Shown: positions 19,544 through 61,178 of the stretch, one piece after another
Numbering within the stretch: position 1 is the first letter of the stretch
Layout: each line of letters begins with the position of its first letter
Source of the DNA: Acidobacteriota bacterium
GTDB taxonomy: Bacteria; Acidobacteriota; Vicinamibacteria; Vicinamibacterales; JAHECP01
Assembly: GCA_024641665.1 (NCBI GenBank)
Contig: JAHECP010000006.1
Span: forward strand, 4,541-68,540
Length of the DNA stretch: 64,000 bases
Reading direction: 5' to 3'
Position numbers and translations under genes: made by a program
Notes under the pieces: model-generated
What the model was told of the DNA's origin: nothing
Database searches by the model: none
Seen by the model: only the letters and a program-made list of their open reading frames with translations

Positions 19544-19563
19544 AGAATATGATATATAGTATT
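19544..19563 (-). promoter_or_regulatory. AT-rich box copy 1 (minus-strand reading AATACTATATATCATATTCT), pointing towards the frameshifted gene
   Basis: A 20-nt AT island in GC-rich DNA. Nearly identical to the copy at 59334-59355 (GAATACTATATATAATATAGG). Confidence 0.55.
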
Positions 19564-19726
19564 GAGAGCGGCCCGGGCCGGGGGGCGGGCGGCGCCGCTT
19601 GCCACCGCGGGGCCATGCACGCGTGAAGGTGCCAGGAGGGCCGGGATCCGGCAAGCGCGTCTCACGGGCGAACGATTGCCCGGCGGCGTTCCCGCCCGGC
19701 GCGTGACGAACGATCGCGACATCCCC

Positions 19727-19747
19727 GATAATTGTATATAATATTCC
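19727..19747 (+). promoter_or_regulatory. AT-rich box copy 2 (GATAATTGTATATAATATTCC), GCGACA-N15-TATAAT / N17-TAATAT, pointing towards the class V PLP-enzyme operon
   Basis: Perfect TATAAT at 19737-19742. A -35-like GCGACA at 19716-19721. Inverted relative to copy 1, 163 nt away, which gives a divergent promoter layout. Confidence 0.55.
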
Positions 19748-19960
19748 ACCGGCGGCGGGCCCGGCGGTTCGAGGAGATTCAGCACGGTGCTTACACCACG
19801 CGTCAACCACCACCGGCCCGATTCGACCCAGCCGGCAGGCTGGCCGCCGGCCATCGGTGCGCTTCGACACGTGCCCGGCAGCCGACACGTGGTGCTGAGC
19901 CGCGTGTCGGTGTCGTGGTAGGCACGGCAGGGCTCGTTCCCGTGACGTCAGGGGGGATAC

Positions 19961-21283
19961 ATGGAGACTGACTACGAACAGGGCCTGTTCTCACCCGCCT
20001 TGATGCAGGAGATCAGGAACCAGTTCATCTACGTCGATTGGGACCCCTACTCCGGCCGGCGCATCTTCTTCGATGCGGCGTCAGGCTCGTGCCGGCCAAC
20101 GCGGGTCATCGAGGCGATGGGGATGGAAACCTGTCTCCCGGACCAGCAGGGGCGCGCCAACCCTGGCTCCCAACACGCCATGGACGTGACCGCGAAGGGG
20201 ATCGAGGATCTGATGATCTTCTTCGGTGCGAGATCCGGTCAGATCATCCCGGGCTGGAGCAGCAGCCACGTCATCTTCCGCATCACCGACGCCGTCGTCT
20301 CCACGATCCCCGGCACGAACGTCATTACCACGGGCCTGGACCACGCGTCGGTCCAGAGCGCGTTGGCGCTCTTCGCCGCGAAGTATCACAAGGAGCTGCG
20401 CGTCGCCGCGCCCGACCCGGACACGGCCTCGGTCAAGACCGACGCGATCTTGAACCACGTCGACGAGCACACGTGCTTCCTCGTCCTGACCCACACGTCG
20501 AACGTCACCGGTGAGGTCTACGACGTCAAGACCATCATTCGCGAGGCCCGTGCGATCAAGCCCGACCTGTTCGTGATGGTCGACGGCGTGCAGTACTCTC
20601 CATCCGACGTCATCGACGTCGAGGACGTCGGCGCCGACGCCTACGTCATCGCGCCCTACAAGAATTACGGTGTCAAGGGCTGCGGCTACGCGCACGCATC
20701 GGAGCGGCTCGCCGCGCTGCCGCACTGGAAGTACAGCCTCAAGCCGGCCGCCTGCTGGGATCTGGGCGGCGTCGAGCACCAGTCCTACGCGGCCTGGTCG
20801 GCGGTCGTCGATTACCTGTGCTGGCTCGGCGGGCGGTTCACGAGCGCTTCCGACCGGCGGTCGCTCGTCGTCGCGGCGATGAAGGCGATCAAGGCGCACC
20901 AGGTCGGGTTGCTGTCGCTGTTGCTCCACGGGACGGGCGATGTGGCCGGCCTCAGGGAGATGGATCACGTGACCGTCTACGGGGTCGGCGATCCTCTCTG
21001 GAAGCAGTCGCTGCTGGTCGGGTTCAACCTGGCCGGGATCGAATCCACCGAGGGATGTGCCCTCTACAAGTCGGCCCAGATCCGCGTGCACGCGCCAGGC
21101 CACGATCCGTACTTCGCGGCGATGCTGCGGCAGATCGGCATCGACAGTTGCATCAGGCTGTCGGGCAGCCACTACAACTCGCCCCAGGAAATCGAGGCCT
21201 TCTTGCGGGCAACCGCGAGTTTTGCCACCGAGCGGGACGCGCCACTGGACGGGCGTCGTGCAGACGTGACCATCGCGACCTGA
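19961..21283 (+). CDS. Aminotransferase class V-fold PLP-dependent enzyme (cysteine desulfurase/SufS-like fold, specificity unknown)
   Basis: ..RRIFFDAASGS.., ..LVLTHTSNVTGEVYDVKTI.., ..MVDGVQYSPSDVIDVEDVGADAYVIAPYKNYGVKGCGYAH.. (Lys in APYK aligns with the SGHK PLP lysine), ..IRLSGSHYNSPQEIEAF... Confidence 0.75.
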   Translation: METDYEQGLFSPALMQEIRNQFIYVDWDPYSGRRIFFDAASGSCRPTRVIEAMGMETCLPDQQGRANPGSQHAMDVTAKGIEDLMIFFGARSGQIIPGWSSSHVIFRITDAVVSTIPGTNVITTGLDHASVQSALALFAAKYHKELRVAAPDPDTASVKTDAILNHVDEHTCFLVLTHTSNVTGEVYDVKTIIREARAIKPDLFVMVDGVQYSPSDVIDVEDVGADAYVIAPYKNYGVKGCGYAHASERLAALPHWKYSLKPAACWDLGGVEHQSYAAWSAVVDYLCWLGGRFTSASDRRSLVVAAMKAIKAHQVGLLSLLLHGTGDVAGLREMDHVTVYGVGDPLWKQSLLVGFNLAGIESTEGCALYKSAQIRVHAPGHDPYFAAMLRQIGIDSCIRLSGSHYNSPQEIEAFLRATASFATERDAPLDGRRADVTIAT

Positions 21284-21493
21284 CGCGCCGCCGGCAGGGA
21301 GCGCGTCCTCGTGCGCACAGCCGCCCTAGAACCGGTTTCATGATCTCCGCAGCGCCAATGAGCGCCGCGGCGAATTGGAAGAACGCCAGGAACATCCGGG
21401 TGGAGCGCTCGTGGCGAACCAGCAGCCGGCGGAAGCCATAGCGTTATCTTGCGCGGTCGAACCGCAGCACCCGCGCTTCTAGGAGGCGAAGTC

Positions 21494-22471
21494 ATGTTCA
21501 GGATGCGATTTCTGATTGGAGCTATCGGACTTGTGCTGTTGTGCCCTGCGACCTCACCAGGACAATCGCTTGTGGCCGTCTCGGCCCGGGGCGAGGGGGC
21601 CGTCAAGCTCTACTCGCCGGTCCGCGACACTCTTCGCCTGGTCAAGTCCGTTCCTGCCGGGCGGCAGCCCGGCGAGATGTGTCTGGATCCCGAAGGGACG
21701 CACCTGTTCGTGGGAGAGGTTCCGGAAAAACAAGTAGGTGTGCTCGATCTGCAGAGCAAGACCATCGTCGCCACCATATCCGATCCCGGCATCGAGTCAC
21801 CGGACGGATGCGCCGTCAGCCCGGACGGAAGCAAGCTGTACGTCGTGGATAGGGAAGCCAACACCGTCTTCGTCTTCAATATCGCGTCCCGCCAGCTGAT
21901 CAAGAAGATTGCGGTGGGCCAAGAGCCAAGGCGTGCGCTGTTTTCACGCGACGGAAAGACAGTTATCGTCACCAGCGCCGAAGCCGCCACCCTCACTGTG
22001 ATCGACGCTTCGACCGATACGATCGTGCGCACCGTCAAGACCGGCCACGGACCTCAGGACCTCGCCTTTACGCCGGACGGCAAGTTACTGGTCGTCGGGC
22101 TCATCGACGATGACGCGGTCGGTTACTTCAATGCCAACACGTTGGAGCTCGAGCAGGAGGTTGGGACTGTCCAATCGCCGCAGCATGTCGTCCCCTCGCT
22201 GGATGGCCAGCTCTTGTTCGTCTCAGGCCATCTCCAAGGTGTCATCGGAGTGATGAACCTGCGCCCGAACAGCCGATTGGCGCGTCGTCTTGTCCAAACG
22301 ATTCCGGTCGGCACCAGGACCCAGTGGGGCCTGACCATGAGCGCGGACGGCAAGTACTTGTACTCAACACAGCCGGCCGATGACGCCCTTTCAGTCATCG
22401 ATCTGCAGTTGATGAAAGCTGTCTTCACCTTGCACGTTGCGGGGGCCGGTGCAGTGATCTTCTGCAAGTGA
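21494..22471 (+). CDS. Secreted YVTN-type beta-propeller protein, paralog P1
   Basis: AGGAGG RBS + ATG 21494. Signal-like MFRMRFLIGAIGLVLLCPATSPGQS. Repeated ..PDG..LYV..N.V.V(I)D.. blades. Colinear with the 31251 and 47775 genes. GC is lower (about 52-62%) than the surroundings. Confidence 0.8.
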   Translation: MFRMRFLIGAIGLVLLCPATSPGQSLVAVSARGEGAVKLYSPVRDTLRLVKSVPAGRQPGEMCLDPEGTHLFVGEVPEKQVGVLDLQSKTIVATISDPGIESPDGCAVSPDGSKLYVVDREANTVFVFNIASRQLIKKIAVGQEPRRALFSRDGKTVIVTSAEAATLTVIDASTDTIVRTVKTGHGPQDLAFTPDGKLLVVGLIDDDAVGYFNANTLELEQEVGTVQSPQHVVPSLDGQLLFVSGHLQGVIGVMNLRPNSRLARRLVQTIPVGTRTQWGLTMSADGKYLYSTQPADDALSVIDLQLMKAVFTLHVAGAGAVIFCK

Positions 22472-22489
22472 AGAGATCTCCATTTGGCA

Positions 22490-22531
22490 CGGAAGAAGCG
22501 GTTCGATCTTGGCCCATTGCGCGTCGGTCAG
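22490..22531 (-). mobile_element. Stub of an IS5-family (IS427/IS1031-like) transposase N-terminus
   Basis: Minus-strand translation gives RLTDAQWAKIEPLLP. This matches the conserved ..LTDxxWxxIEPLLP.. opening of IS5-family DDE transposases (from memory). Homology stops after about 15 codons, where it abuts the end of the P1 gene. Confidence 0.4.
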
Positions 22532-22635
22532 ACGGGTGCTGCGCCTGGCCTGGCAGTGCAACGACGCTGGGTGATCGAGACGGCGACGCTCGAGGTGATC
22601 GACAACTTGCGGTGACGGAAGCGTGGAGGTAACAG

Positions 22636-25455
22636 GTGAGGGCCCGAATCTTCGTCTTGCTGCTTTGCTTGATCTCGTTGCCGACACGCGATGTTGGAAC
22701 GGCGCGCCAGGGCGGTTCCGCATCGGTCGTCGCGCTGACGAACGCGACAGTCGTCGTCGGCAACGGCCAGGTGCTCCCGCGGGCGACCGTGGTCGTGCAC
22801 GACGGGATCATTCGCGCGGTCGGTGCCAAGGTGGCGATCCCGGCTGGCGCGAGGGTGGTGAACCTGGGTGGCGCCTACCTGTACCCGGGGCTGATCGACG
22901 CGCTGACGGTTCAGGTTTTCAAGGATGCGCCGGCCGGGCACGCTGCGCAGGCTGGTTCGACGTCGCGCGGACAGCCCGCTGCTTCCGACCAGGCAGGTCC
23001 TGACGGCGGCGGCTTCTTCGCGCACGTCGAGGCAGCCGACCAGCTCGATCCCGACCCGGCCGCCTGGGCGGCGTGGCGTGACGCGGGCATCCTGACGCTG
23101 CACGTGTCGCCGGACCGTGGCATCTTCGAGGGACAGACGGCGGTGGTGACGCTCGAGGGCGAGGCCGCGACGCCGAGGGTCATCCGCCGGGCCGTTGGGA
23201 TGCGGATTGCGCTGCGCACCCTCAGTGCGCCTCGACGGGCGGGCTTTCCGGTTCCGGGCGGGCTGTATCCCGGCTCGCTCCTCAGCGTCTGGTCCCATAT
23301 CGAGCAGACCGTGCTCGACGCGCAGCACGCCCTGAAGGCCGCCGCCTTCCCCGCGACCGACCTCGCCTCGATCGGGTACGCGGAGCCCGTGCGCGCACTC
23401 GAGGCCCTGCGCCCCGTCGCGGAAGGGACGATGCCGCTCATCGTTCCGGCGCGCGCCGAGCGCGAGGTGCAGCGGGTCCTCGACCTCGCGGACCGGTTTC
23501 ACGTCCGGTGCATGATCGCCGGCGGCTACGAGGCCGCGCAGCACGCCGAGGCGTTGAAGGCCGCGAAGCTGCCGGTCATCGTCAGCCTGAATTTCCCGCC
23601 CAGGCCAGCGAGCCGGCTGGGCAAGCAGGCGCAATTCGTCACGACCGCCGCAGCGGCCGCGCCCGAGGAAACCTACCTGGAGATGCGGGCCCGGGTCCAT
23701 GCGCCGGAAGCGGCCGGGGAGCTGGCGCGCGCGGGCGTGCCGTTCGCGTTTGCATCGGACGGGTTGAAGACGGGTGACGCGTTCCTGGCGAACCTCCGGC
23801 GGGCGGTGGCGAACGGCCTGTCGAAGGAGGCCGCCATCCGCGCGGCAACACTGTCGGCGGCGGAGATCCTCGGCGTGGCGCAGCAGGTGGGCAGCATCGA
23901 GCCCGGCAAGATCGCGAACCTGATCGTCGCCGACGGCGATCTGCTCGATGAGGGCACCCGCCTGACGGCGGTCTACGTCGGCGGCCACGAACGGACGGCC
24001 GCGACGACGGAGTCCGGAGCGGCATCGGTCCCGACGCCGGTTCCCGGGCGGCGTGCGGCCGCACGCGCGCCGGCCGCCCCCCCGTTCGTCTCGCGCGTGA
24101 TGGCCGCCGGCACCGACCCGTACTTCCCGCCGCCGGTCGCGTCCGAGGAGCTTCTCATCAGGAACGCCACGGTCATGACGGCGACGCACGGCACGCTCGA
24201 GCACACGTCGATTCTGGTCCGTCATGGCAAGATCGCCGCGATTGGCGCCAACCTCGAGGCCGGACCGCAGGCGCGGATCGTCGATGCGACCGGCAAGTGG
24301 GTGACGCCCGGCTTCATCGACACCCACAACCACATCGGGAGCGACGCGCACAACGACGCCACGATTGCCGTGACGTCGATGACGAAGCTCGAAGACGTCA
24401 TCGATCCGACCGAGATCGGGGTGTACCGGGCGCTGAGCGGCGGTGTGACGATGGTGCACACCATGCACGGCAGCGTCAACCCCATTGGCGGGCAGGGCGT
24501 TCTGATCAAGACGGCGTGGGGGAAACCCGCCAAGGACCTGGTCGTGCCCGGAGCGACACCGACCCTCAAGATGGCGCTCGGGACCAACCCGAAGGGCCGC
24601 GGCACCCAGCCGGCGGAGGGCGTGGCGCGGCGGTACCCCGCGAGCCGCATGGGCGTCATGGACGTCATCCGAAGCGCGCTCGTGGCGGCGAGGGACTACA
24701 AGCTGCAGTGGGATCTCTACGAGAAGGCCCGCGACGGGCACCTCGGCCTGCTGCCCCCGCGGCGCGATCTCACGCTCGAACCCCTCGTGGAGGTGTTGAC
24801 GGGCACGCGCATGATCACGGTCCACGCGTACCAGGCGGACGAGATGCTGACCCTGATGCGGCTGGCCGACGAGTTCGGCTTCAAGGTCGGCCGCTTCGAG
24901 CATGCCGCCGAGGGGTACAAGATCGCGCCCGAGCTGGCGCGACACGGTGCGGGCGTTGCCGCCTTCGATCTGCTGGGCACCAAGGTCGAATCGTGGGATG
25001 CCATTCCCCAGGGGATCGCCGTCCTCGTCAAGGCGGGCGTGTCGGTGTCGATCGGCACCGATGGCTGGGAAGTCGCGCACATGGTGCACGAGGCGGCCCA
25101 GACGCTCGAGTACGGGTTGACGCCCGATCAGGCCCTGGCGCTCATCACGATCAACGCCGCGAAGCAGCACGGCGTCGATCGGACAGTCGGTTCCATCGAC
25201 GAAGGCAAGGACGCCAACCTGGTGATCTTCGACAAGTACCCGTTCAGCGTGTACGCCACGCCGGAGCAGGTGTACATCGACGGGCAGTTGTATTTCAGCC
25301 GCGCACGCGACCGGGAACGGGCGAAGGCGATCGCGGCCGAGAAGGAGCGGTTGTCCGCGCTCGACGAGGTGCCGGCTGCGCCCGGCGTGACGACCGGGTC
25401 GCCGGCCGTCCGCCCGCAATCGCCCGCAGGAAGGCAGGTACCCAGTGGCCGCTAG
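22636..25455 (+). CDS. Two-domain amidohydrolase: N-terminal domain lacking the HxH metal motif + C-terminal catalytic-type domain
   Basis: GTG start with a GGAGG RBS and a signal-like N-terminus. Domain 1: ..YLYPGLIDALTVQVF.. (no HxH) ..GSIEPGKIANLIVADGD... Domain 2: ..WVTPGFIDTHNHIGSD.. (HxH present) ..SIGTDGW..GSIDEGKDANLVIFD... Confidence 0.8.
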   Translation: MRARIFVLLLCLISLPTRDVGTARQGGSASVVALTNATVVVGNGQVLPRATVVVHDGIIRAVGAKVAIPAGARVVNLGGAYLYPGLIDALTVQVFKDAPAGHAAQAGSTSRGQPAASDQAGPDGGGFFAHVEAADQLDPDPAAWAAWRDAGILTLHVSPDRGIFEGQTAVVTLEGEAATPRVIRRAVGMRIALRTLSAPRRAGFPVPGGLYPGSLLSVWSHIEQTVLDAQHALKAAAFPATDLASIGYAEPVRALEALRPVAEGTMPLIVPARAEREVQRVLDLADRFHVRCMIAGGYEAAQHAEALKAAKLPVIVSLNFPPRPASRLGKQAQFVTTAAAAAPEETYLEMRARVHAPEAAGELARAGVPFAFASDGLKTGDAFLANLRRAVANGLSKEAAIRAATLSAAEILGVAQQVGSIEPGKIANLIVADGDLLDEGTRLTAVYVGGHERTAATTESGAASVPTPVPGRRAAARAPAAPPFVSRVMAAGTDPYFPPPVASEELLIRNATVMTATHGTLEHTSILVRHGKIAAIGANLEAGPQARIVDATGKWVTPGFIDTHNHIGSDAHNDATIAVTSMTKLEDVIDPTEIGVYRALSGGVTMVHTMHGSVNPIGGQGVLIKTAWGKPAKDLVVPGATPTLKMALGTNPKGRGTQPAEGVARRYPASRMGVMDVIRSALVAARDYKLQWDLYEKARDGHLGLLPPRRDLTLEPLVEVLTGTRMITVHAYQADEMLTLMRLADEFGFKVGRFEHAAEGYKIAPELARHGAGVAAFDLLGTKVESWDAIPQGIAVLVKAGVSVSIGTDGWEVAHMVHEAAQTLEYGLTPDQALALITINAAKQHGVDRTVGSIDEGKDANLVIFDKYPFSVYATPEQVYIDGQLYFSRARDRERAKAIAAEKERLSALDEVPAAPGVTTGSPAVRPQSPAGRQVPSGR

Positions 25456-26764
25456 ATCACGACGTCAATCGGGGCGCCGCGCGCCCATCGTCTGCGCCGC
25501 GGTTGGCGCGGCGCTCCTCGTCTTCACCGATGTCGCCTCCGCCCAGCAGGCCTACGCGATCAAAGACGCGCGCATCGTCACCGTGTCGGGACCGGTGATC
25601 GAGAAGGGGACGGTCGTGATCCGCGACGGCCGCATCGCCGATGTCGGCGCGGCCGTCACCGTGCCAGCCGAGGCGACGGTCATCGACGGCCGGGGGCTGA
25701 CGGTGTACCCCGGGCTGTTCGACGCCTTCACCAGCGTCGGCCTCACCGAGATCCCCGGCCTCTGGGAATCGGACGACTTCAGCGACATCGGTGACTTCAC
25801 GCCGCAGCTCATGACGTTCGACGCGTTCCACAGCGCCAGCGCGTTTGTCGCGATCGCACGATCGGTCGGCATTCTGCACGTGGTGAGCAGTCCCAGTAGC
25901 GGCATCGTGGCCGGCCAGGGCGCCGTGATGGCGCTCGGCGGGTGGACGGCCGACGAGATGGTGGTGGCCAAGCATGGCCCGATGTTCGTCGACTTTCCGA
26001 AGCTGCTCAACTACGACGCGCCGGCCTACACGCGCCGCCGCCACCCGTATGCCGAGGTGAAGGACTACGCGACGAAGATGCGCGAGCTGACAGAGTTCTT
26101 CGCCGCTGCGCGCAAGTACATGGACGCCAGGGACCAGGCCGGGGCCGAGGCTCCCGCCCCGACGGCCGAGGAGGCGCCGTACGAGGCGATGATCCCGGTG
26201 CTCAAAGGGCGGCAACCGGTGTTCATCGAGGTGCAGAGCGAACAGGACATCAGAAAGGCGGTCGGGTTCGCGCGCGAACAGAAGCTGAACTACGTGCTGG
26301 TCGGGGCCGAAGACGCGCCGCTCCTCGCCGACTTCCTGAAGGAGCAGGACGCCCGCGTGATTGTCGGTCCTCCCGGCGACATGCCGATTCGCCCCGACGA
26401 CCCGGTCGACACGGTGTGCCGCGCCGCGGCCGTGCTGCACGAGCACGGGGTCGGGATTGCCTTCGGAACGGTAAGTGGAACGGCCAACGACCTCAGCCTG
26501 CGCCACCAGGTCGGCATGGCGGTGGCGTGCGGCCTCCCGCGCGACGTGGCGCTGCGCAGCGTCACGCTGACGCCCGCCGAATTCGTCGGCGTCGCCGGTG
26601 AGGTGGGCAGCATCGAGACGGGCAAGCGGGCGGACCTCGTGCTGACCGACGGCGACATCTTCGAGTACGGAACCCACATCATCCAGACCTTCGTCAACGG
26701 GAAACAGGCGGGCGTGGAATCGCGCTACACGGACCTGTACGAGAAGTACAAGGACAGGAAATAG
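25445..26764 (+). CDS. Amidohydrolase-fold protein lacking the HxH motif (probable non-catalytic partner)
   Basis: ..LTVYPGLFDAFTSVGLTEI.. replaces the PGxxDxHxH motif. C-terminal ..GSIETGKRADLVLTDGD... GTG start overlaps the upstream stop by 11 nt. Signal-like N-terminus. Confidence 0.78.
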   Translation: MAARSRRQSGRRAPIVCAAVGAALLVFTDVASAQQAYAIKDARIVTVSGPVIEKGTVVIRDGRIADVGAAVTVPAEATVIDGRGLTVYPGLFDAFTSVGLTEIPGLWESDDFSDIGDFTPQLMTFDAFHSASAFVAIARSVGILHVVSSPSSGIVAGQGAVMALGGWTADEMVVAKHGPMFVDFPKLLNYDAPAYTRRRHPYAEVKDYATKMRELTEFFAAARKYMDARDQAGAEAPAPTAEEAPYEAMIPVLKGRQPVFIEVQSEQDIRKAVGFAREQKLNYVLVGAEDAPLLADFLKEQDARVIVGPPGDMPIRPDDPVDTVCRAAAVLHEHGVGIAFGTVSGTANDLSLRHQVGMAVACGLPRDVALRSVTLTPAEFVGVAGEVGSIETGKRADLVLTDGDIFEYGTHIIQTFVNGKQAGVESRYTDLYEKYKDRK

Positions 26765-26798
26765 AGAACGAGGGACATCGGGTCCTGGAGATGGGCAC

Positions 26799-28202
26799 AT
26801 GAAACGCCGGCCCTGTCCGCTGCGGGTCGTCGCCCTGCTCGTGGGCGCCGGTCTTGCCACCCAGACGTTCGCCCAGGCGCCGCCGTTCGAGCCGGCCCAG
26901 AGCCCGCGCCTCGCCGTGCTGCAAAGGGACGTGCAGAGCGGCGCCGCCGATGCGGTTGCGACCTTCTGGAAGGAGATGGAGGCCCGGGGCACGCCCCTCG
27001 TCGAGCCGGTGCCGGACGACGATCAGCACGTGATCGCCACCTTCCTGTGGCGCGGGAAGCCGGAGACGACGAGCGTGCTCGCCGTCATCCCGTTCCGGTC
27101 CTCGCGCAGCCTCGTCGAGAACCTGATGGCGCAGGTGCCCGGCACCGATGTCTGGTACCGCACGCTCGAGATCCGCAGCGACCTGCGCTTCACGTACTCG
27201 TTCCTGCCCGACCCGCTCGCGGCGATGACCGCCCGCGTGTCGCTTCCCGATCTGATGCGCCTGCAGCAGTTCGATCCCCTCAACCGGAAGACGTTTCGCT
27301 CGCCGCCCGATCCCGAGGATCCCGACATGAACCGGATCGAGGGGTCCATCGCGGAGATGCCGAAGGCCTCAGCACAGCCCTGGATTGCGAGACAGGAAGG
27401 CATTCCGGACGGCCGGGTCGAGATGCACCGGTTCAAGAGCGCCGTTCTCGGCAACGAGCGGCGCATCTGGATCTACACGCCACCCGGATACTCGCCGACG
27501 GCGAACCAGCTCTATCGCATGGTGATCTGCTTCGACGGGCGCGCGTACCTGGACAGCGCGGGAATCCCGACGCCCACGATCCTCGACAACCTCCTCGCCG
27601 CGCGCAAGATCCCGCCAATCGTGGCGGTGCTCGTCGAGAACCCGTGGACGTCGCGGCAGAAGGAGCTGAGCAACCACCAGGCCTTCGTGGACTTCCTGGC
27701 CACGGAGCTCCTGCCGTGGGTGCGCCAGGCGTATCACGTCACGACCGATCCCACGAAGACGATCGTGTGCGGTCTGAGCGCTGGGGGGCTGACGGCGGGC
27801 TACGTGGCGTTCAAGCGGCCCGACCTGTTCGGCAACGTGCTCGCCCAGTCGGGCGCGTTCTGGCGGGGCAACGAAGGCGACGAAGTGAACCACGAATGGC
27901 TGACGCAGCAGTTCCAGGCGAGCCCGGTGCTGCCCATTCACTTCTGCATCCAGGCGGGGTTCCTCGAGCAGGGCGTTCCCTCGCCGAACAACGGACCGTC
28001 GCTGCCGCTCGCGGCGCGGCACCTGCGGGACGTCTTGGTGGCCAAGGGTTATCCGGTCGTCGAGTATCGCGACGTGCCCGGCGGGCACGAGCCCCTCACC
28101 TGGCGCGGCACGCTCTCCGACGGGCTGCTGTTCCTGCTCCAGCACGAATCGACGCGAGGCACGACGCCCGGGGCCGTCTCTCCGGCTACCGCGACGCGGT
28201 AG
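26799..28202 (+). CDS. Enterochelin-esterase(Fes)-like putative esterase with N-terminal Ig-like domain
   Basis: Signal peptide MKRRPCPLRVVALLVGAGLATQTFAQA. ..RRIWIYTPPGY..ICFDG..Y.. and GLSAGG nucleophile elbow. Same overall layout as Fes/PF00756-type esterases (recollection). Confidence 0.72.
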   Translation: MKRRPCPLRVVALLVGAGLATQTFAQAPPFEPAQSPRLAVLQRDVQSGAADAVATFWKEMEARGTPLVEPVPDDDQHVIATFLWRGKPETTSVLAVIPFRSSRSLVENLMAQVPGTDVWYRTLEIRSDLRFTYSFLPDPLAAMTARVSLPDLMRLQQFDPLNRKTFRSPPDPEDPDMNRIEGSIAEMPKASAQPWIARQEGIPDGRVEMHRFKSAVLGNERRIWIYTPPGYSPTANQLYRMVICFDGRAYLDSAGIPTPTILDNLLAARKIPPIVAVLVENPWTSRQKELSNHQAFVDFLATELLPWVRQAYHVTTDPTKTIVCGLSAGGLTAGYVAFKRPDLFGNVLAQSGAFWRGNEGDEVNHEWLTQQFQASPVLPIHFCIQAGFLEQGVPSPNNGPSLPLAARHLRDVLVAKGYPVVEYRDVPGGHEPLTWRGTLSDGLLFLLQHESTRGTTPGAVSPATATR

Positions 28203-31165: not shown

Positions 31166-31198
31166 TTGACAAACATAGATATTGTATATGAAATATCC
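31166..31198. promoter_or_regulatory. AT-rich box copy 3 (TTGACAaacatagatattgtataTGAAATatcc) in the divergent M14 / propeller-P2 intergenic region
   Basis: TTGACA 31166-31171, a 17-nt spacer, then TGAAAT 31189-31194. Core TTGTATATGAAATATCC lies 52 nt before ATG 31251. The reverse strand reads CATATACAATATCTAT towards the M14 gene. Confidence 0.55.
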
Positions 31199-32240: not shown

Positions 32241-32261
32241 CGGCTGTCGAGGGAGTGGACC

Positions 32262-33713: not shown

Positions 33714-33727
33714 CGAGCGACGCGGCC

Positions 33728-35089: not shown

Positions 35090-35097
35090 GAACCGCC

Positions 35098-45961: not shown

Positions 45962-45987
45962 GGGATATGATATACTTTGCGCATATG
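45962..45987 (+). promoter_or_regulatory. AT-rich box copy 4 (GGGATATGATATACTTTGCGCATATG) overlapping the GntR start; TATACT 45971-45976 lies 8 nt before ATG 45985 (near-leaderless)
   Basis: The reverse complement AAGTATATCATATCCC matches copy 5 (TAGTATATAATATCCC) at 14/16 positions. Confidence 0.5.
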
Positions 45988-46680
45988 AGGCCAGGCGGCA
46001 ACTCTCTCATTGAGCTCGACCCCACTGTCGCGCTACCTACGGCACTGCCCGATCGCATCTACGCCACGCTCAAGCACCGCATCCTCACGGGCTCGATCCT
46101 GCCATCGGCGCGCATCATCGAAAAGGAACTCTGCACCGAGATGCACGTCTCACGAACGCCGCTCAGGGAGGCCCTGAACCGCCTCGCGCTGGAAGGCCTG
46201 GTGCAGATCGTCCCCTACCGGGGCTACGTCGTGGCCCCGCTGACCGTTCAGGGGTTCCGGGAACTCTGCGAGGTGCGACGTATCCTCGAGGCCGAGACGG
46301 CCGCGCTGGCGGCCGAGCGGGCGACCGATGCCGACATCGCGCACTTGGCCTCGCTGGCCGAGCTGCGGTACCGGCGGGAGGACCGCCGGACCTACGGCAA
46401 GTACCTCCGGGCCAACAGCGCGTTCCATCAGGCGCTGGTGCGATCGTCCGGCAACACCCGGCTCGAAGGCATTGTGATGCTGGCACTTGATCAACACCAG
46501 CGCCCGCTGTATCTCGGCCTGGGAGTAGGGGTCGATGGAGCGGCGTCGACCGGCGAGCATCGGGATATCGTCGATGCGATCCGGGAGCGGAAGCCGCAGC
46601 GCGCGCGTGAGGTGATGATCCAACATCTGAGGCGCGCGGAGGATCGCATCGCGAGCGCCCTGCAGGCCGCTGGCTACTGA
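45985..46680 (+). CDS. GntR-family transcriptional regulator, FadR subfamily (FCD C-terminal domain)
   Basis: ..PDRIYATLKHRILTGSILPSARIIEKELCTEMHVSRTPLREALNRLALEGLVQIVPYRGYVVAPL.. wHTH, followed by an all-helical ..FHQALVRSSGN..EHRDIVDAI.. FCD-type domain. An alternative ATG lies at 45967. Confidence 0.85.
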   Translation: MRPGGNSLIELDPTVALPTALPDRIYATLKHRILTGSILPSARIIEKELCTEMHVSRTPLREALNRLALEGLVQIVPYRGYVVAPLTVQGFRELCEVRRILEAETAALAAERATDADIAHLASLAELRYRREDRRTYGKYLRANSAFHQALVRSSGNTRLEGIVMLALDQHQRPLYLGLGVGVDGAASTGEHRDIVDAIRERKPQRAREVMIQHLRRAEDRIASALQAAGY

Positions 46681-47895: not shown

Positions 47896-47915
47896 CATAT
47901 AGTATATAATATCCC
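47896..47915. promoter_or_regulatory. AT-rich box copy 5 (CATATAGTATATAATATCCC) in the divergent P3 / M28 intergenic region
   Basis: Contains a perfect TATAAT (47905-47910), 72 nt before ATG 47988. The reverse strand reads GGGATATTATATACTATATG towards P3. Confidence 0.55.
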
Positions 47916-47987
47916 ATCGCCGAGGGTACTCGGCCCGCCGGGGCGTCGGGCGGCCCGCGCCCGCGCGTTCGGCTCTTGGAGGCCCCC

Positions 47988-49682
47988 ATGTCGCCCATCT
48001 CCGCGCCCGGTGCCGCCACGAGGTGCCAGCGTTTCGTCCCCGTCCCGACGACCCCTGCGGCCGTGGCCCTCGCCGTCGCCATCGGGCTGGCCGTGTCGTT
48101 CGGGTGCGCGCGGGCCCAGGCGCCCTCCGCGCGGGTCCCCGTTCCCGAACCCGCCCTCGCCACCATCACGATACCCAAGCTGGCCGGGCCCATCCGCTTC
48201 CTCACGAACGACCTCCTCGAGGGCCGCGTCGTCGGCCACCGGGGCAACGAGATCGCCGAGATCTTCGTCGCCTCGGCGCTCGAACGGACCGGGCTCGCGG
48301 GCGTGAACGTCAGCAGCGACGGGCCGTACTACCAGCCGTTCGAGCTCATCGGAGCCGTCGCCGAGGCGGGCAACAAGCTCGTCGTGTCCGGTCCCGCCGT
48401 CAGCGGGGCGGCGCGAGCGACCTACGAGATCGGGCCGGACTTCTCGCCCATCAATATCTCGACGCTCGGCGAGGTTTCCGGCGACCTGGTCGTCGCCGGC
48501 TACGGTATCAGCGATCCCGCGCACGGCGAGGACGACTACCAGGGCGTCGAGGCCACCGGGAAGATCGTGCTCGTCCTCGACGGCAGCGGGACGCTGAACC
48601 TGCTCGACGTCACGCCGACCGTCAAGGCCCGTGTCGCCAAGGCGCACGGCGCCACGGGGCTGATCATCGCCACGCCGGTCATCGACGGCAAGCGCGTGTG
48701 GCCCGACGCCATCTCGCCGAAAGTCAACCGCTTCATTCCGCCGGCGCGCACCGACGGCGTCGAAATCCCGGTCGTCAACATCTCGCTGAAGCTCGCGGAT
48801 CGACTGCTCGCGCCCCGCGGCCAGACCGTGGATTCGCTGACGAAGCGCCTCGCCGAGACACGCGCGGGTGCATCGTTCCCTCTCCCCGGCCAGCGCGCGA
48901 CGATCGCCGTCCATCTCGCACGGCGGCGGGTGGTCGTCCGCAACCTGCTCGCCGTCATGGAGGGGACCGACCCCGTCCTCAAGAACGAGCTCGTGGTCGT
49001 CGGTGCGCACTTCGACGCGAACGGGATTGATGACAAAGGCCTGATCTACCGGGGCGCCGACGACAACGCGTCGGGCGCCTCCGCCGTCCTGGCCATTGCC
49101 GGTGCCTTCGCTCAAGCGGCGGCGGACGGGATACGGCCGACGCGCACGGTCGTCTTCGCGCTCTGGAACTCCGAGGAGAAGGCCCGCTCCGGCTCGACCT
49201 ACTACGTGGGGCACCCGGTGCCAGACTGGGGCACGGTGGTGGTCAACGTCAACCTCGATCAGATCGGTCGCAACGAGGAGAACGACGGCTCCGATCCGCG
49301 GCTCCAGGTCTTTCCGCTGTCGTCTGCCGAGGAGAATGCGAACGTCGTGCACCTGCTCGGCTACTCGCTGTGCCCGGACGTCGCGCGCATCGTCATGGAA
49401 GAGAACGCGACGATCGGGCTGACGGTCAAGGAGGATTACGACGATCATGCGTCGAACCTGCTGCGTCGCAGCGACCACTGGGCGTTCCTCCTGAAAGGCA
49501 TCCCCGCGGTCTTCCTCCACACCGGCCTGCCCCCGGACTATCACTTGCCGACCGACACGATCGACAAGATCAACTTTCCGAAGCTCCAGAGAATCACGAT
49601 CCTCGCGTTCCGCACCGTCTGGCGTCTGGCCACAGAGACCGAGCGACCTCAGCCGCCGCGGATGGACGGCCGGACCGATTGA
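47988..49682 (+). CDS. M28-family aminopeptidase with PA domain
   Basis: GGAGG RBS + ATG 47988; the track TTG 47976 is an alternative. ..VVVGAHFDANG..YRGADDNASGASAVLAIA.., ..LWNSEE.., ..SDHWAF.. are M28 metal-ligand motifs. Confidence 0.85.
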   Translation: MSPISAPGAATRCQRFVPVPTTPAAVALAVAIGLAVSFGCARAQAPSARVPVPEPALATITIPKLAGPIRFLTNDLLEGRVVGHRGNEIAEIFVASALERTGLAGVNVSSDGPYYQPFELIGAVAEAGNKLVVSGPAVSGAARATYEIGPDFSPINISTLGEVSGDLVVAGYGISDPAHGEDDYQGVEATGKIVLVLDGSGTLNLLDVTPTVKARVAKAHGATGLIIATPVIDGKRVWPDAISPKVNRFIPPARTDGVEIPVVNISLKLADRLLAPRGQTVDSLTKRLAETRAGASFPLPGQRATIAVHLARRRVVVRNLLAVMEGTDPVLKNELVVVGAHFDANGIDDKGLIYRGADDNASGASAVLAIAGAFAQAAADGIRPTRTVVFALWNSEEKARSGSTYYVGHPVPDWGTVVVNVNLDQIGRNEENDGSDPRLQVFPLSSAEENANVVHLLGYSLCPDVARIVMEENATIGLTVKEDYDDHASNLLRRSDHWAFLLKGIPAVFLHTGLPPDYHLPTDTIDKINFPKLQRITILAFRTVWRLATETERPQPPRMDGRTD

Positions 49683-49738
49683 CGGTCGCTGGCGGGGTCC
49701 GTGCCACTACGGGCGCAGATGCCCGGCGAGGTGCTTTC

Positions 49739-51901: not shown

Positions 51902-51924
51902 CCGCCGGCCGAAGGGAGCACCAG

Positions 51925-52899
51925 GTGCGTAATCCAACCATCTCGCCGAACATTCTCGATGTCGTCGGCCAGACGCCGTTGATCGCGTTGTCGCGCCTGA
52001 CGGCGGGATGCCGATCCCGCGTGTTCGCCAAACTGGAATCCGCCAACCCCGGCCTCAGCGTCAAGGACCGACCCGCGCTGCAGCTGCTGCGTGACGCCGA
52101 GCGGCAGGGCCGCCTGAAACCGGGCATGACCGTCATCGAGCGCACGAGCGGGAACATGGGAACCGGCCTCGCGCTCGCGTGCCTGCACCTGGGCTACAAG
52201 CTGGTGGTCCTGATGTCGGCCGGGAACAGCGTCGAGCGGCGCCAGATCATTCAGGCGCTGGGCGGCAAGGTCATTCTCGTGCCCCAGGTGAACGGGACGC
52301 CTGGTCAGGTGACCGGGGACGACCTCAAGGCCGTGGAACGGGAAACGATCCGGCTGATGAACGAGATGGGGGCGTATCGGGCGGATCAGTTCCACAACCC
52401 GAGCTGCGTGCGCGCGCACGAGCGCGGAACCGGCCGGGAGATCTGGCGGCAGTGCCGCGGACGCGTGGACGCGTTCGTCTCGGTGGCGGGCTCGGCCGGC
52501 ACGTTCGTCGGCGTGTCCCGCTACCTGAAGCGCCACAACCCGAAGGTGAAGTGCTACGCGGTCGAGCCGACCAACGCGGCGCTCCTCTCCGGCCGGCGCA
52601 AGAAGCCGGGCCGCCACCGACTGCAGGGCGTCGGCTACATGGAGATCCCGCCGCTCTGGGAGCCCGAGCTCGCCGACGGGTTCATCAGCGTGGGCGATCG
52701 CGAGGCCACCACCATGGCACGGCTGCTCGCCCGCAAGGAAGGGATCCTGGCGGGCTACACGACCGGCGCGAACGTGGCGGCGGCGCTGCGGCTCGCGCGA
52801 TCCTCGAAACGGCCCATCAACGTGGTGACCATCATCACAGACTCGGGGCTGAAGTACCTCAGCACCGATCTGTACCCCGACTCGGCGACGTCGCTGTGA
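51925..52899 (+). CDS. Cysteine synthase / cystathionine beta-synthase-family (fold type II) PLP enzyme
   Basis: GTG 51925 with a GAAGGGAG RBS. ..GQTPLIALSRL..KLESANPGLSVKDRPAL.. (PLP lysine), ..TSGNMGTGLA.., ..GSAGTFVGVSRYLK... Confidence 0.82.
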   Translation: MRNPTISPNILDVVGQTPLIALSRLTAGCRSRVFAKLESANPGLSVKDRPALQLLRDAERQGRLKPGMTVIERTSGNMGTGLALACLHLGYKLVVLMSAGNSVERRQIIQALGGKVILVPQVNGTPGQVTGDDLKAVERETIRLMNEMGAYRADQFHNPSCVRAHERGTGREIWRQCRGRVDAFVSVAGSAGTFVGVSRYLKRHNPKVKCYAVEPTNAALLSGRRKKPGRHRLQGVGYMEIPPLWEPELADGFISVGDREATTMARLLARKEGILAGYTTGANVAAALRLARSSKRPINVVTIITDSGLKYLSTDLYPDSATSL

Positions 52900-52947
52900 T
52901 TGAGCCGCGCGACATTCCCGGCGTTCCTCATGGAGGACCACATCGAG

Positions 52948-54003
52948 ATGTCAGGCAGAATACCGGCGTGGAGCCTCACGCTGATCGCGAGCCTGCCGTT
53001 CGCCCTGTACGCGCAGAATCAGGCGCCCGCGCGCGCCGGTTCTCTCCCGACGCCGACGGCGGCCGTCGAGAGCGTGGGTGCGAGTGTCACCGCGGTTCGG
53101 CTCGGCGGCAAGCCGATCATCACGCCGCAATCGAGCCCGACACTGGGTGACAACATCAACGGGCCTTCGCTGATTCGCGCTCCGGGGTGGGTGGAACATC
53201 CCCTGGGCCGGTACTATCTCTACTTCGCCCACCATGAAGGGCAGTTCATCAGGCTCGCCTATGCCGATCGCCTGACCGGTCCATGGAAGATCTACGAGCC
53301 TGGCACGCTCAAGCTGTCCGAGGCGCCTCTTTGCTGGAATCACATTGCGTCGCCCGACGTGCATGTGGACGAGGCCCGCAAAGAGATCCGGATGTACTAT
53401 CACTGCCCCAGCCGCACCCGGGCGCCCGCGCCGTCGGTGAATTCGGGGCACCCGCCGAACGAGGTGCAGGGCACGTTTCTGGCCACGTCCACCGACGGGT
53501 TGCACTTTGCGCCTGGCTCGGTGGACCTCGGTCCTTTCTACTTCCGGGTCTTTCGCTGGGGCGGCTACGACTATGCCCTCGCGCGAGGCGGGACCCTGCT
53601 CCGGTCGCGCGAGGGGAGGTCGGCGTTCGAGCAGGGTCCGGACCTGTTTGGCGGCGACCCGCATCACCTCATGCGGCACGCCGCGGTGGATCTGCGCGGC
53701 GACACGCTGCGCGTCTACTACTCGCGCATCGGAGACCGGCCCGAACGCATCCTGGTTTCCCAGCTTCAGCTGACGCCGGATTGGGAGGGATGGCGCGCGT
53801 CGCCGCCGACGGACGTGCTCAGCCCGGAGACGGACTACGAAGGCGGGACGCTGCCGCTCGAGACCTCGGAGACTTCACTGGCGCGGCATCCGGTCCGGCA
53901 GCTGCGCGATCCGGCCATCTTCCACGAACAGGGACGGACGTACCTGATCTACTCCGTCGCAGGCGAGAGCGGGCTGGCCATCGCCGAGCTGCGCGAGCAG
54001 TAA
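52948..54003 (+). CDS. Secreted protein, probable five-bladed beta-propeller of the GH43/GH32-like clan (function unknown)
   Basis: Signal MSGRIPAWSLTLIASLPFALYAQ. ..NGPSLIRAPGWVEHPLGRYYLYFAHHEGQFIRLAYADRLTGPW.. and ..LRDPAIFHEQGRTYLIYSVAGE.. resemble GH43-like propeller blades (recollection, unverified). Confidence 0.5.
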   Translation: MSGRIPAWSLTLIASLPFALYAQNQAPARAGSLPTPTAAVESVGASVTAVRLGGKPIITPQSSPTLGDNINGPSLIRAPGWVEHPLGRYYLYFAHHEGQFIRLAYADRLTGPWKIYEPGTLKLSEAPLCWNHIASPDVHVDEARKEIRMYYHCPSRTRAPAPSVNSGHPPNEVQGTFLATSTDGLHFAPGSVDLGPFYFRVFRWGGYDYALARGGTLLRSREGRSAFEQGPDLFGGDPHHLMRHAAVDLRGDTLRVYYSRIGDRPERILVSQLQLTPDWEGWRASPPTDVLSPETDYEGGTLPLETSETSLARHPVRQLRDPAIFHEQGRTYLIYSVAGESGLAIAELREQ

Positions 54004-59333: not shown

Positions 59334-59364
59334 GAATACTATATATAATATAGGCCACTGTCAA
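59334..59364 (-). promoter_or_regulatory. AT-rich box copy 6; textbook TTGACA-N17-TAGTAT on the minus strand, ~225 nt upstream of the receptor ATG
   Basis: Minus strand reads TTGACAgtggcctatattatataTAGTATtcc (-35 at 59364-59359, -10 at 59341-59336). The + strand reads GAATACTATATATAATATAGG. Confidence 0.6.
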
Positions 59365-59434
59365 GCCCGGGTGCCAACTCCCTTCCGGGGCCCGCCACGT
59401 GCCCCCGGCACCCGGAAACCGGCCGGTGCGCGCC

Positions 59435-60370
59435 TCACGGCCGCTCGCGCGCGCTCGCGGCCGCCGGCTTCAAGTGCCGGTCGAGCCATCGAATCGTCTC
59501 GGCCGTGATGTCGGGCCACTCGGGATGCGGCGTGTCGGCCGTCGCACCGAACGTGGCGCCGTGGACCCCGCCCGGAATCCTCAACAGCCTGACCGGCACC
59601 CCGGCCGCCCGCAGCGCCTTCTCGAACGTCACCGACTGCTCGTAGGGCACGGTCGGGTCCGCGTCGCCGTGAACGAGCAACGTCGGGGGCGCGGCGCTCG
59701 ACACGTGCGTGATCGGCGAGGCCTCGGTGTACACCTTCTTCGCCGGCGGTGAGTTGCCTGGAGCGATGTCCAGGAACAGCGCCAGCGCAACGAGGCCGTT
59801 GCCACCCTTCATCTCCCTCAAGTCGGACGGTGCGGCCCGCAAGACGAGGCACTGCAGCGTGGCGGGCTCCCCGTTCACCGGGTCGTCGCGATCGTCCGCG
59901 TTTCCCGGCGCGCCGAGCACCCCCGTGAGCCCGATCAGGTGCGCGCCCGACGAGCCCCCCACCCCGCCGATCCTGGTGGGATCGATGCCGTACGCGTTCG
60001 CATGGTGGCGGACGAAGCGCACGGCCCGCTGGACGTCCTCGACGGCCGCTGGATACTTGAATTCCGGCGCCGCCCGATGATTGATCGTGAAGACGGTGTA
60101 CCCGGCCCGCGCCAACGGCAGGACCGACGTCTCGAGCTCCGCCTCCTTGAGCTGACGCGCGTTGTAGGTCGACCGCGCCCGCCAGCCGCTGCCGGCGACG
60201 AAGACGACGCCGTACCTGTTGGGCGCATCGGGATGGTAGACATCCATGAGCAGGGCCAGGCCTCCGTACATCCCGTAGACCACGTTCCGGTCCACGCGCA
60301 GGTCGGCGGCCGCTGCCGGGCTGGCACCCAATAACGCCAGGGCGGTCACAATCATGCTCAGGCGACGCAT
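59435..60370 (-). CDS. Secreted alpha/beta hydrolase (esterase / S9-C-terminal-like)
   Basis: Signal MRRLSMIVTALALLGASPAAAA. ..VVFVAGSGW.., GGSSGAH (GxSxG), ..LLVHGDADPTVP.., ..GGVHGA... Confidence 0.78.
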   Translation of the reverse strand: MRRLSMIVTALALLGASPAAAADLRVDRNVVYGMYGGLALLMDVYHPDAPNRYGVVFVAGSGWRARSTYNARQLKEAELETSVLPLARAGYTVFTINHRAAPEFKYPAAVEDVQRAVRFVRHHANAYGIDPTRIGGVGGSSGAHLIGLTGVLGAPGNADDRDDPVNGEPATLQCLVLRAAPSDLREMKGGNGLVALALFLDIAPGNSPPAKKVYTEASPITHVSSAAPPTLLVHGDADPTVPYEQSVTFEKALRAAGVPVRLLRIPGGVHGATFGATADTPHPEWPDITAETIRWLDRHLKPAAASARERP

Positions 60371-60402
60371 GGTCGATCTCCTCCTTCCAGCCCAGGCTGG
60401 TC

Positions 60403-61049
60403 CTACTGTTCCGACCCCAGCCCGGCGAGGATGTCCGAGATGTCGCGGGCGAGGGGGACGATCCGGGCGTTCTCGAGGTTCGTCATCAAGGCCACGACCT
60501 GCTTCCGGTCCGGCCGCAGGTACAGCAGGTTCGTCACCCGCTGCTGGTTGCCCGTGTGCAGGATCTCAGGCACGCCGTCGTGCCACCGCAGCATCCAGCC
60601 GATGCCGTACGCGAGCTCGTCACCGGCGGGTTGTGGCCTCCGTTTCGTTGCCGGATAGGGCGTCCACATGAGGTCCACCGTCTGCGGCTCGACGAGCCTG
60701 CCCGCCTGGAACGCCACAGCGAACCGGGCGAGATCCACGACGGTTGCGTCGAGGCCTCCTCCCGGGATCTTGTAGCTGGTGTCGGCGAGGTGCGAGTTGC
60801 GGAGCTCGCCGCTCGGCAGCTGCGGACGACGCCGTCCACGGCAACGGCGATCGAGACCGCGGGAATGGTCTGGCGGGCCATCTCCGTCGTGATCGCCCGT
60901 TCGATCCGCGCCTGCACGTCGGCCGGCAGCCCGGTCGGCGCCGGCGCGGTGACAGCCTGCTGCGGGTGGGTCCATGCCTGTGGGGGGTGCCCCAGACCGA
61001 TCGCCGCCGCGGCGACGACCGGGACCAGCCATCGCATCCACCTGTGCAT
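60403..61049 (-). pseudogene. Beta-lactamase-family serine hydrolase with internal deletion + frameshift (catalytic SxxK region missing)
   Basis: Frame A from ATG 61049: MHRWMRWLVPVVAAAAIGLG..LPADVQARIERAITTEMARQTIPAVSIAVAVDGVV. The sense continues only in another frame: ..QLPSGELRNSHLADTSYKIPGGGLDATVVDLARFAVAFQAGRLVEP..AYGIGWMLRW..VVALMTNLE..*. Total is about 215 codons versus 350-480 for intact relatives such as 32262-33713. Confidence 0.6.
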
Positions 61050-61154
61050 CGCATGCCTCCTCGTTGTGTCGCGGCTGCCGCGCATTGACCCTTCGGCCTC
61101 CGCGGTGCCGCCCGATGCGGGGCCAACCCTCCGCGCCGGCCGTAAACACGCCGG

Positions 61155-61178
61155 CAAATATATCGTATATCATACGTA
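61155..61178. promoter_or_regulatory. AT-rich box copy 7 (CAAATATATCGTATATCATACGTA) between the pseudogene and the 61394 gene
   Basis: Core TCGTATATCATAC. Lies 106 nt from the pseudogene ATG (minus) and 216 nt from ATG 61394 (plus). Confidence 0.45.

Follow-up and report, generated by a model that had tools for sequence, protein, structure and literature searches.

AT-rich boxes across a hydrolase gene cluster in a Vicinamibacterales contig are predicted operators of a FadR-type regulator

What are the AT-rich boxes that recur at the 5′ ends of accessory operons in a 64,000-nt stretch of an Acidobacteriota contig (JAHECP010000006.1, positions 4,541 to 68,540; assembly GCA_024641665.1, Vicinamibacterales), here called the window? 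The original prediction, made from the DNA letters, took them for a shared operator or a lineage-specific strong promoter class, by either of which some 45 kb of hydrolase genes would be connected. Our analysis supports this link, and of the two options the operator is the better supported, because the element has dyad symmetry and, in its cross-genome consensus, matches the TKGT/ACMA rule of the FadR subfamily of GntR regulators (PMC4494728). The gene at 45985-46680 codes for a GntR/FCD (FadR-subfamily) regulator whose operators the boxes probably are; from its sequence and that of its sites we predict that it binds them as an autoregulated repressor.

Defining an AT island as at least 11 A/T in 14 nt, we found only 12 in the window (G+C content 68.7%): the seven boxes, and five others at 4901-4949, 8863-8879, 8883-8899, 8930-8950 and 13329-13354. 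All seven strings of the original prediction are present, some of them 1-5 nt away from where it had placed them (exact starts: 19732, 31182, 47900, 59338 and 61163 on the plus strand, and 19544 and 45962 as reverse complements). Our gene map, built from Pfam and from frame analysis of G+C at third codon positions (GC3), agrees with the gene contexts first given for the boxes. Positions 1-18.6 kb hold housekeeping genes (tricorn protease, LysR, leuA/leuB-like, GlmS, GlmU, rsmI-like methylase, DUF885 and SerRS). The 18.8-64 kb part holds peptidases (three M28 genes, S9 and M14), other hydrolases (amidohydrolases, BD-FAE and β-lactamase-fold enzymes), three YncE/lactonase-type propellers, a BNR/sortilin protein, an Oar-like outer-membrane protein, pyridoxal-phosphate (PLP) enzymes (the cysteine-desulfurase-like Aminotran_5, the DABA/ornithine-type Aminotran_3 and the cysteine-synthase-like PALP) and one GntR/FCD regulator. 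A box stands at each transcription-unit start in 18.8-62.5 kb and at none in 1-18.6 kb, and all the boxes in the window are intergenic and upstream of genes (Table 1).

The element is an 18-bp dyad, nATATYRTA|TAYRATATn, with ATATTGTATACAATAT as its ideal form. The idea of a dyad arose because an asymmetric 20-nt expectation-maximisation (EM) model gave unstable orientations. When 25 sites were aligned on their centre, they read nATAT-YR-TATA-YR-ATATn with the central TATA in all 25, the columns that are dyad partners were correlated at 0.83-1.0 in eight of the nine pairs, and self-complementarity per site was 5.28 of 9, compared to 4.23 ± 0.23 in shuffles, none of which (0/2000) reached it. 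The core described originally, GTATAT[AC]ATAT[CT]CC, is real but corresponds to the centre and right half-site only, the dyad having been missed. Likewise, the alignment behind it mixed orientations relative to the genes (59338 was read on the plus strand, with the Oar-like gene on the minus; 45962 as reverse complement, with the GntR gene on the plus), which is harmless because the motif is a dyad. Across genomes the consensus is TTGT-AT-ACAA, in which position 7 is G, and position 12 is C, in 68% of the sites each.

Could TA-rich, low-complexity islands resemble one another by chance? (TA)n-like sequences do align easily, and the orientations in the first alignment were mixed, but this explanation is refuted by the tests that follow. 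In the window TATATMATA occurs six times versus 0.02 expected from dinucleotide shuffles, and GTATATMATATYCC with at most two mismatches five times versus 0.04. Since TA-rich islands are trivially alike, we used a harsher null in which letters are shuffled within each island, together with a matrix from other genomes. For the latter, 19 metagenome loci were collected with the regulator as bait, and the upstream DNA of their GntR orthologs (18 non-redundant regions, window sequence excluded) was given to a de novo palindromic EM, which converged from unrelated seeds on TATATTGTATACAATATA. The seven boxes are exactly the top seven matches of this external matrix in the window, with scores from 18.0 to 7.8 (Table 1), compared to a maximum of 10.8, and a 95th percentile of the maximum of 8.6, in 200 random 64-kb sequences. 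Six islands score 13 or more versus a mean of 0.0095 (maximum 1) in within-island shuffles, while the five other islands are indistinguishable from their own shuffles. Among the AT islands of the window, the seven boxes alone have a motif in common. As predicted, the housekeeping part has no copy, with no match there reaching 5; the weaker relatives proposed at 2844-2860 and 13917 did not hold up, as both score below 5 and are at most lone half-sites.

The sites are also conserved in orthologous intergenic regions. A search of genome contigs with the M28/PA protein as single query gave no match, and alignment-based queries were needed. In two loci with M28/PA orthologs of ~65% identity (L002, L003), the same gene families are tightly clustered around a GntR/FCD ortholog, and AT islands are almost all boxes, lying upstream of BNR/sortilin, GntR, Aminotran_5, the Aminotran_3/M28-PA divergon and M14. 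Boxes upstream of the Aminotran_5 ortholog were found in further high-G+C Acidobacteriota/Vicinamibacterales genomes (L004, L005, L006, L010, L032, L039), but Gemmatimonadaceae and Bryobacterales loci with this gene have neither a box nor, in the DNA fetched, a GntR ortholog. In a nine-genome alignment of the Aminotran_5 upstream region, the only invariant columns are TATA..ATAT and three near the ribosome-binding site (RBS) and start codon; and upstream of M14, the window and L003 have diverged with many indels except at the conserved box. Altogether, conservation at orthologous promoters extends to Aminotran_5, GntR, M14, M28/PA, BNR/sortilin and the Oar-like receptor in many Acidobacteriota/Vicinamibacterales contigs.

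The motif accompanies the GntR/FCD ortholog, almost always with a copy before the ortholog's own gene: orthologs of 62-89% identity were found with an upstream box in L001-L004, L010, L032, L038-L054 and L057-L059, about 20 loci. In 274 kb of non-redundant loci outside the window, a box (score of at least 10) lies upstream of 14 of 26 regulon homologues versus none of 65 other upstream regions (Fisher, 9e-10). With no box at the unrelated regions and none in the housekeeping third of the window, the motif does not behave as the generic promoter that had been named as the alternative outcome. In three held-out loci on long contigs (L057-L059) nine sites score at least 8.2, eight of them at least 11, and all are intergenic and at most ~300 nt from a gene start. 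They lie upstream of an abhydrolase, GntR, BNR/sortilin, a lactate-permease/Aminotran_5 divergon, a GGT operon, and divergons of Oar-like/DUF885, PALP-S9-M28-BD-FAE/GntR and propeller/amidohydrolase.

Some relatives showed further features of these regions. The Oar-like/GntR divergons of L045-L054, whose regulators are 62-64% identical, have two sites ~50-70 nt apart, one of which, ATTGTATACGATATACAAT, consists of two overlapping 18-bp dyads offset by 7 bp; its counterpart in L054 is the simple palindrome ATTGTATACAAT. The Aminotran_5 protein (19961-21283; TIGR01976-related) is 69-82% identical across Acidobacteriota, Gemmatimonadaceae, Aminicenantes and Bacteroidales (L004-L036), an identity unusually high for distant phyla that, from the sequences compared, suggests horizontal spread or very strong constraint. 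In low-G+C Aminicenantes (L014, L015, L018, L035) a palindrome, (G)GAATATTC, is conserved ~60-90 nt before the start of the Aminotran_5 ortholog; its sequence is like the outer arm of the box (AATATTC), and the nearby DNA has no close GntR ortholog, only paralogs of 28-34% identity. An AT island at 17364-17408 of L032 has repeated AGATATATCT palindromes (ACAGATATATCTTATGCAGATATATCTAGACATGATATATATGG), which are box-like in composition but distinct (score 7.8), and may be a site for another regulator.

We then considered how the boxes relate to promoters. Where a hexamer with at least five of six matches to TTGACA exists, the distance from it down to the box is 6-8 nt in 14 of 15 instances, and it is always directed toward a gene; this places the -10 at box positions ~12-17 (YRATAT; TAATAT, TAGTAT, TGAAAT). 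The TTGACA-N17-TAGTAT noted earlier before the Oar-like gene is present at 59364-59336 on the minus strand (-35 at 59364-59359; -10 at 59341-59336, inside box 6). A sigma-70 -35/-10 pair spaced at 16-18 nt is clean at this box and loose at boxes 2, 3 and 8: TTGACA at 31166-31171 precedes box 3 by 6 nt on the plus strand (TTGACA-N6-box), TTGACA-N7 precedes box 8 on the minus strand, and a -35-like GCGACA lies 6 nt upstream of box 2, for which the sigma-70 scan gives GTGACG-18-GATAAT as an alternative. No recognisable -35 was found at boxes 1, 4, 5 and 7. A generic sigma-70 scan over 40 kb (18.6-38.6 and 44-64 kb) returned only two sites, both touching boxes, one of them the TTGACA-N17-TAGTAT of box 6. 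Overall, the distance from box to start codon is 12-230 nt; measured from box centres to well-supported starts, those with an RBS and signal peptide, it is 64-130 nt. The element probably overlaps the -10 region, and does not stand in place of a promoter.

This overlap bears on the second option of the original prediction, a lineage-specific strong promoter type without a dedicated repressor, such as an AT-rich or extended -10 or an alternative sigma site, for secreted-hydrolase genes. Such a type would account for the TAnnnT hexamers held by every box (for instance TATAAT, TAATAT or TAGTAT), for TTGACA at promoter-like spacing at several of them, for their distance from start codons and for window sites without a full GT...AC pair. 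However, promoters are directional whereas the motif is a dyad found in either orientation relative to genes; conservation of G7, C12 and the ATAT arms (as far as ±8) exceeds what a -10 would need; the consensus fits the GntR-family rule; the motif follows the presence of a single regulator gene, upstream of which it is also found; and a -35 can be recognised at only about a quarter of the sites. We therefore consider a promoter type of this kind unlikely.

Nor do we favour the view that the symmetry is that of bidirectional promoters, in which near-palindromic -10 elements drive divergent transcription and no transcription factor is needed for the dyad. Boxes 3, 5, 7 and 8 (four of eight) do lie between divergent genes, boxes 1 and 2 flank a fifth divergent pair, and bacterial bidirectional promoters are pseudo-symmetric through the -10 element (Warman et al., 2021, as given in PMC10268837), being, like the boxes, AT-rich and near-palindromic between divergent genes, with -10-like hexamers on both strands. 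Yet their known symmetry is a base-centred 5-bp core, A(-11)...T(-7), with transcription start sites 18 bp apart (PMC10268837), whereas the dyad of the boxes is longer (18 bp), even-centred (TA|TA), has G/C at ±3 and arms at ±5-8, and belongs to one gene set and one regulator. Moreover, some genes with a box follow a neighbour transcribed in the same direction (Aminotran_5 in L002, L003, L004 and L039; the Oar-like gene of the window), and the 65 boxless upstream regions include divergent ones. Bidirectional symmetry is accordingly a very improbable source of the dyad.

Four other candidates were examined and rejected. Leaderless mRNAs, suggested by ATG codons abutting boxes (47898, 31176), gave way to better starts with RBS and signal peptide 64-130 nt downstream, in agreement with the gene calls of L001. 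An RNA element in the 5′ untranslated region was discarded, given that the window has no Rfam match at gathering score and orientation relative to genes is not conserved, as was a miniature inverted-repeat transposable element or other repeat, no repeat family of at least 20 nt containing the boxes. Equating AT islands with promoters in general failed since the five other islands do not match and most genes in the relative loci have no AT island at all.

The regulator has an N-terminal winged-helix GntR domain (PF00392, 6.2e-17, residues 23-83) and an all-helical C-terminal FCD effector/oligomerisation domain (PF07729, 9.6e-27, residues 93-216), with full-length matches to solved FadR-subfamily proteins (7u5q, 7xp0, 3c7j, McbR, NanR, PdhR). 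Every NCBIfam model for the named curated regulators (PhnR, NanR, CsiR, LldR, ExuR, PdhR, GlcC) scored below its cut-off, the best being TIGR03338 phnR_burk (97.8 bits versus 271.5); by sequence, the protein is of a separate ortholog group. This comprises more than 120 clusters at 61% identity or above, all from metagenomes or metagenome-assembled genomes (MAGs), those with names being Vicinamibacterales or Vicinamibacteria. Identity among orthologs is 61-89%, and the recognition-helix block SRTPLREALNRL is invariant in those aligned. The protein P0124 has 237 residues, six more than the 231-residue protein from ATG 45985, which implies a start at the annotated in-frame ATG 45967, inside box 4. 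An exact look-up of the 231-residue sequence matched no record, and the same held for P0121 and P0122. Either way, box 4 lies at or over the regulator's own start, in line with the original prediction; it is a weak site made up of one half-site and the centre, and is kept in L001 and L057.

A different transcription factor, encoded elsewhere, might instead own the dyad, the GntR/FCD gene being merely a regulated member. The GntR assignment comes from co-localisation only, the GntR gene in the window is 26 kb from the Aminotran_5 box, and two loci (L005, L006) have boxes and no GntR gene in the fetched DNA. But the motif matches specifically the TKGT-N2-ACMA class of GntR/FadR sites, the GntR ortholog is the gene that lies beside a box in more independent loci (~20) than any other, no other regulator gene recurs in the loci examined to offer a candidate, and the DNA-reading helix is as invariant across orthologs as the motif. 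We regard ownership by another factor as quite improbable.

Several points nevertheless weigh against the boxes being operators of the GntR/FCD regulator. Its assignment is by association and its binding is a prediction. Of the consensus GT/AC pair, five of the seven window sites keep one only, none keeps both and box 6 has neither; since none has both, the window sites are degenerate and closely resemble plain -10 or TA-rich promoter DNA. The score of box 4 (7.8) falls short of the value (8.6) under which 95% of the random maxima lie. The regions used to train the matrix often include the divergent Oar-like promoter, so that the matrix alone cannot separate an operator from a promoter type of the gene set. 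Among relatives, 12 of the 26 upstream regions of regulon homologues have no box scoring at least 10, several having sub-threshold ones; and in L057, the closest relative on a long contig, the GntR gene's own weak site is the only one within ±10 kb, the other regulon-type genes there being boxless. Finally, the related DNA scanned amounted to ~340 kb and no whole genome, so that the motif is not generic holds locally only.

With these points included, binding by the GntR/FCD regulator is still the reading that we consider probable. We infer who binds, the sign of regulation and the effector, the first of these from association and the family rule. A regulator dimer would recognise the 18-bp A/T-rich dyad, with TTGT-AT-ACAA as ideal core, over the core promoter, where the distal half-site YRATAT (positions ~12-17) would double as the -10. 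Because the dyad covers the -10 and the spacer, the bound dimer would occlude both and block RNA polymerase, that is, act in repression. Release would come from a small-molecule ligand of the FCD domain, probably an acid derived from an amino acid or peptide. Where two operons diverge from an intergenic region, a single site could govern the pair, and the regulator would control its own gene through the weaker box 4. This mechanism, a FadR-type repressor over the -10, is conventional and of a well-known kind.

In the contig, the predicted regulon has at least eight sites, ~11 transcription units and ~30 genes, and continues past the right edge of the window. Its members are secreted peptidases (M28, S9, M14), amidohydrolases, BD-FAE and β-lactamase-fold enzymes, three YncE-like propellers, BNR/sortilin, the Oar-like outer-membrane protein, Aminotran_5, Aminotran_3 and PALP. 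A search of the literature for such a regulon, or for a TTGTATACAA operator, in Acidobacteria found nothing relevant. A broader proposal, which we make tentatively and hold to be rather doubtful, is that the class Vicinamibacteria would here have a transcription factor, its operator and its regulon defined for the first time, with one FadR-type repressor as master switch of extracellular protein and peptide scavenging (peptidases, Oar-like outer-membrane protein, PLP enzymes), its YRATAT half-sites serving as -10s and one dimer shutting both arms of a divergon. For Acidobacteriota, Vicinamibacteria included, metagenomes and MAGs are the only sources here, and the analysis offers a testable unit, namely one regulator, an 18-bp operator model and ~30 target genes for protein/peptide degradation, that recurs in many related contigs. 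The matrix could serve for regulon annotation in MAGs, for guessing the function of box-carrying unknown genes and for choosing targets of heterologous binding assays, and the operator as a handle on the inducing metabolite.

Table 1. Boxes, predicted regulator and last gene of the window. Scores are those of the external matrix.
Feature	Sequence	Position	Strand	Context	Score and shuffles
Box 1	AATATGATATATAGTATT	19546..19563		upstream of minus-strand frameshifted gene (~18707-19500)	15.7; 0/2000 within-island shuffles reach it
Box 2	ATAATTGTATATAATATT	19728..19745		upstream of Aminotran_5 - propeller - two amidohydrolases - esterase operon (19961-28202, +)	16.5
Box 3	GATATTGTATATGAAATA	31178..31195		divergon M14 (ATG 31104, -) / propeller-2 operon (31251-45839, +)	14.9
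Box 4	GATATGATATACTTTGCG	45964..45981		abuts or overlaps regulator start	7.8, seventh in window; within-island shuffle p = 0.0045
Box 5	CATATAGTATATAATATC	47896..47913		divergon propeller-3 (ATG 47775, -) / M28-PA - S9 - PALP - unknown (47988-54003, +)	16.4
Box 6	AATACTATATATAATATA	59335..59352		upstream of Oar-like outer-membrane protein + BD-FAE hydrolase (59334-54052, -)	18.0
Box 7	TATATCGTATATCATACG	61159..61176		between disrupted β-lactamase-like gene (-) and 61394-62476 gene (+)	13.1; 0/2000 shuffles
Box 8	AATATGATATATAATATC	outside window, window-equivalent 66808-66825		promoter region of 1311-aa amidohydrolase gene	16.6
GntR/FCD (FadR-subfamily) transcription factor		45985..46680	+	PF00392 + PF07729	
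1311-aa amidohydrolase gene, 3′ part		62586..64000	-	last gene of window	

Box 8 was located with a Logan contig (L056) that is identical to the window over their overlap and extends its right end by 5.4 kb; the external matrix finds this site, outside the window, in the next divergent intergenic region past the right edge. Box 5 is kept in L001 and has counterparts upstream of M28/PA in L002 and L003, and a 19-mer identical to box 6 occurs in L046 between divergent Oar-like and GntR genes. The plus-strand operon after box 3 runs propeller-2, β-lactamase, Aminotran_3, BNR/sortilin, S9, unknown, α/β hydrolase and M28. The disrupted β-lactamase-like gene near box 7 has its 5′ end at ~61046 and a BD-FAE gene (59435-60376) behind it, according to the gene calls of L056. 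Downstream of box 1, translation of the minus-strand gene at 18707-19500 shows two reading frames with a frameshift near 18900-18990; it has no Pfam match, and is either a pseudogene or an assembly error.

The start of Aminotran_5 lies ~215 nt downstream of box 2 (19746-19960), compared to ~45-70 nt in eight relatives, and the extra GC-rich leader is without an Rfam match. Immediately after boxes 2 and 5 come GC-rich hairpins, such as GCCGAG-GGTA-CTCGGC (47919-47934). The propellers at 21572-22471, 31251-32240 and 46792-47775 form a paralog set, of which the second and third open transcription units right at a box and the first is second in the box-2 operon; and the amidohydrolase genes at 25469-26764 and 62586-63998 are 70-77% identical in DNA over 100-200 nt. 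The two paralog sets suggest that the regulon grew by duplication.

The other AT islands of the window have features of their own. The three at 8863-8950 lie upstream of a small GntR-domain gene (~130-150 residues; 8468-8923, minus strand), with a motif, CCAGTACAATAGTACAAATG (GTAC-N4-GTAC, or tandem AGTACAA), that does not match the box matrix and is probably that gene's own operator. The island at 13329-13354, inside the open reading frame of the rsmI-like TP_methylase, holds the palindrome TTGGTCTATTAACCAA (TTGGT-N6-ACCAA), which resembles a different, FadR/PdhR-type site. The 49-nt AT-rich divergent region at 4901-4949, between the LysR and HMGL/homocitrate-synthase-like genes, bears no relation to the boxes (score 1.5); presumably it serves the leuA/leuB-like operon as a LysR-type control region.

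Among known systems, the operator of Bacillus subtilis GntR, ATACTTGTATACAAGTAT, has the same central TTGTATACAA palindrome as the boxes and overlaps the promoter that it regulates, but its flanks differ, it serves a single gluconate operon and the relation of the protein to the window regulator is known at the family level. NanR of E. coli is a FadR-subfamily member that the regulator matches weakly (E = 2.5e-8 to PDB 6on4; 75 bits versus an NCBIfam cut-off of 260), and its GGTATA-type hexamers resemble the box core GTATA(T/C); however, it binds direct repeats of TGGTATAW (PMC4494728) and not an inverted repeat.

Comparative genomics describes operators of the FadR subfamily as palindromes rich in A/T that carry TKGT/ACMA boxes, in which GT and AC are 3 nt apart or, for certain groups (GntR, HpxS, HypR, MdcY and PrpR; Suvorova et al., 2015), 2 nt; they are common in divergons with one central site (PMC4494728). 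The window regulator, with its GntR winged helix-turn-helix and FCD domain, is alike in that the cross-genome box consensus TTGT-AT-ACAA fits the 2-nt class, and in that sites lie before the regulator gene and in divergons, with one central site for two operons. It differs in not being an ortholog of any curated regulator and in belonging to a phylum outside the 2015 survey, which covered no Acidobacteria (PMC4494728); in the unusually long, conserved periphery of the boxes (ATAT arms, 18 bp); in the many sites, among them all seven of the window, that keep one GT/AC pair or neither; and in a regulon that is large for a local FadR-type regulator. HypR of Streptomyces coelicolor is a GntR/FadR-like repressor of L-hydroxyproline utilisation and an autorepressor with its own site over the -10, and its regulon includes a secreted M9 collagenase (PMC6608401). 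Its motif, CTNTGC(A/C)ATGTCAC, has weak symmetry, unlike the boxes, and it acts in another phylum on another gene set. HypR, whose regulon mixes amino-acid catabolism with this secreted peptidase, is a precedent for the mechanism proposed here.

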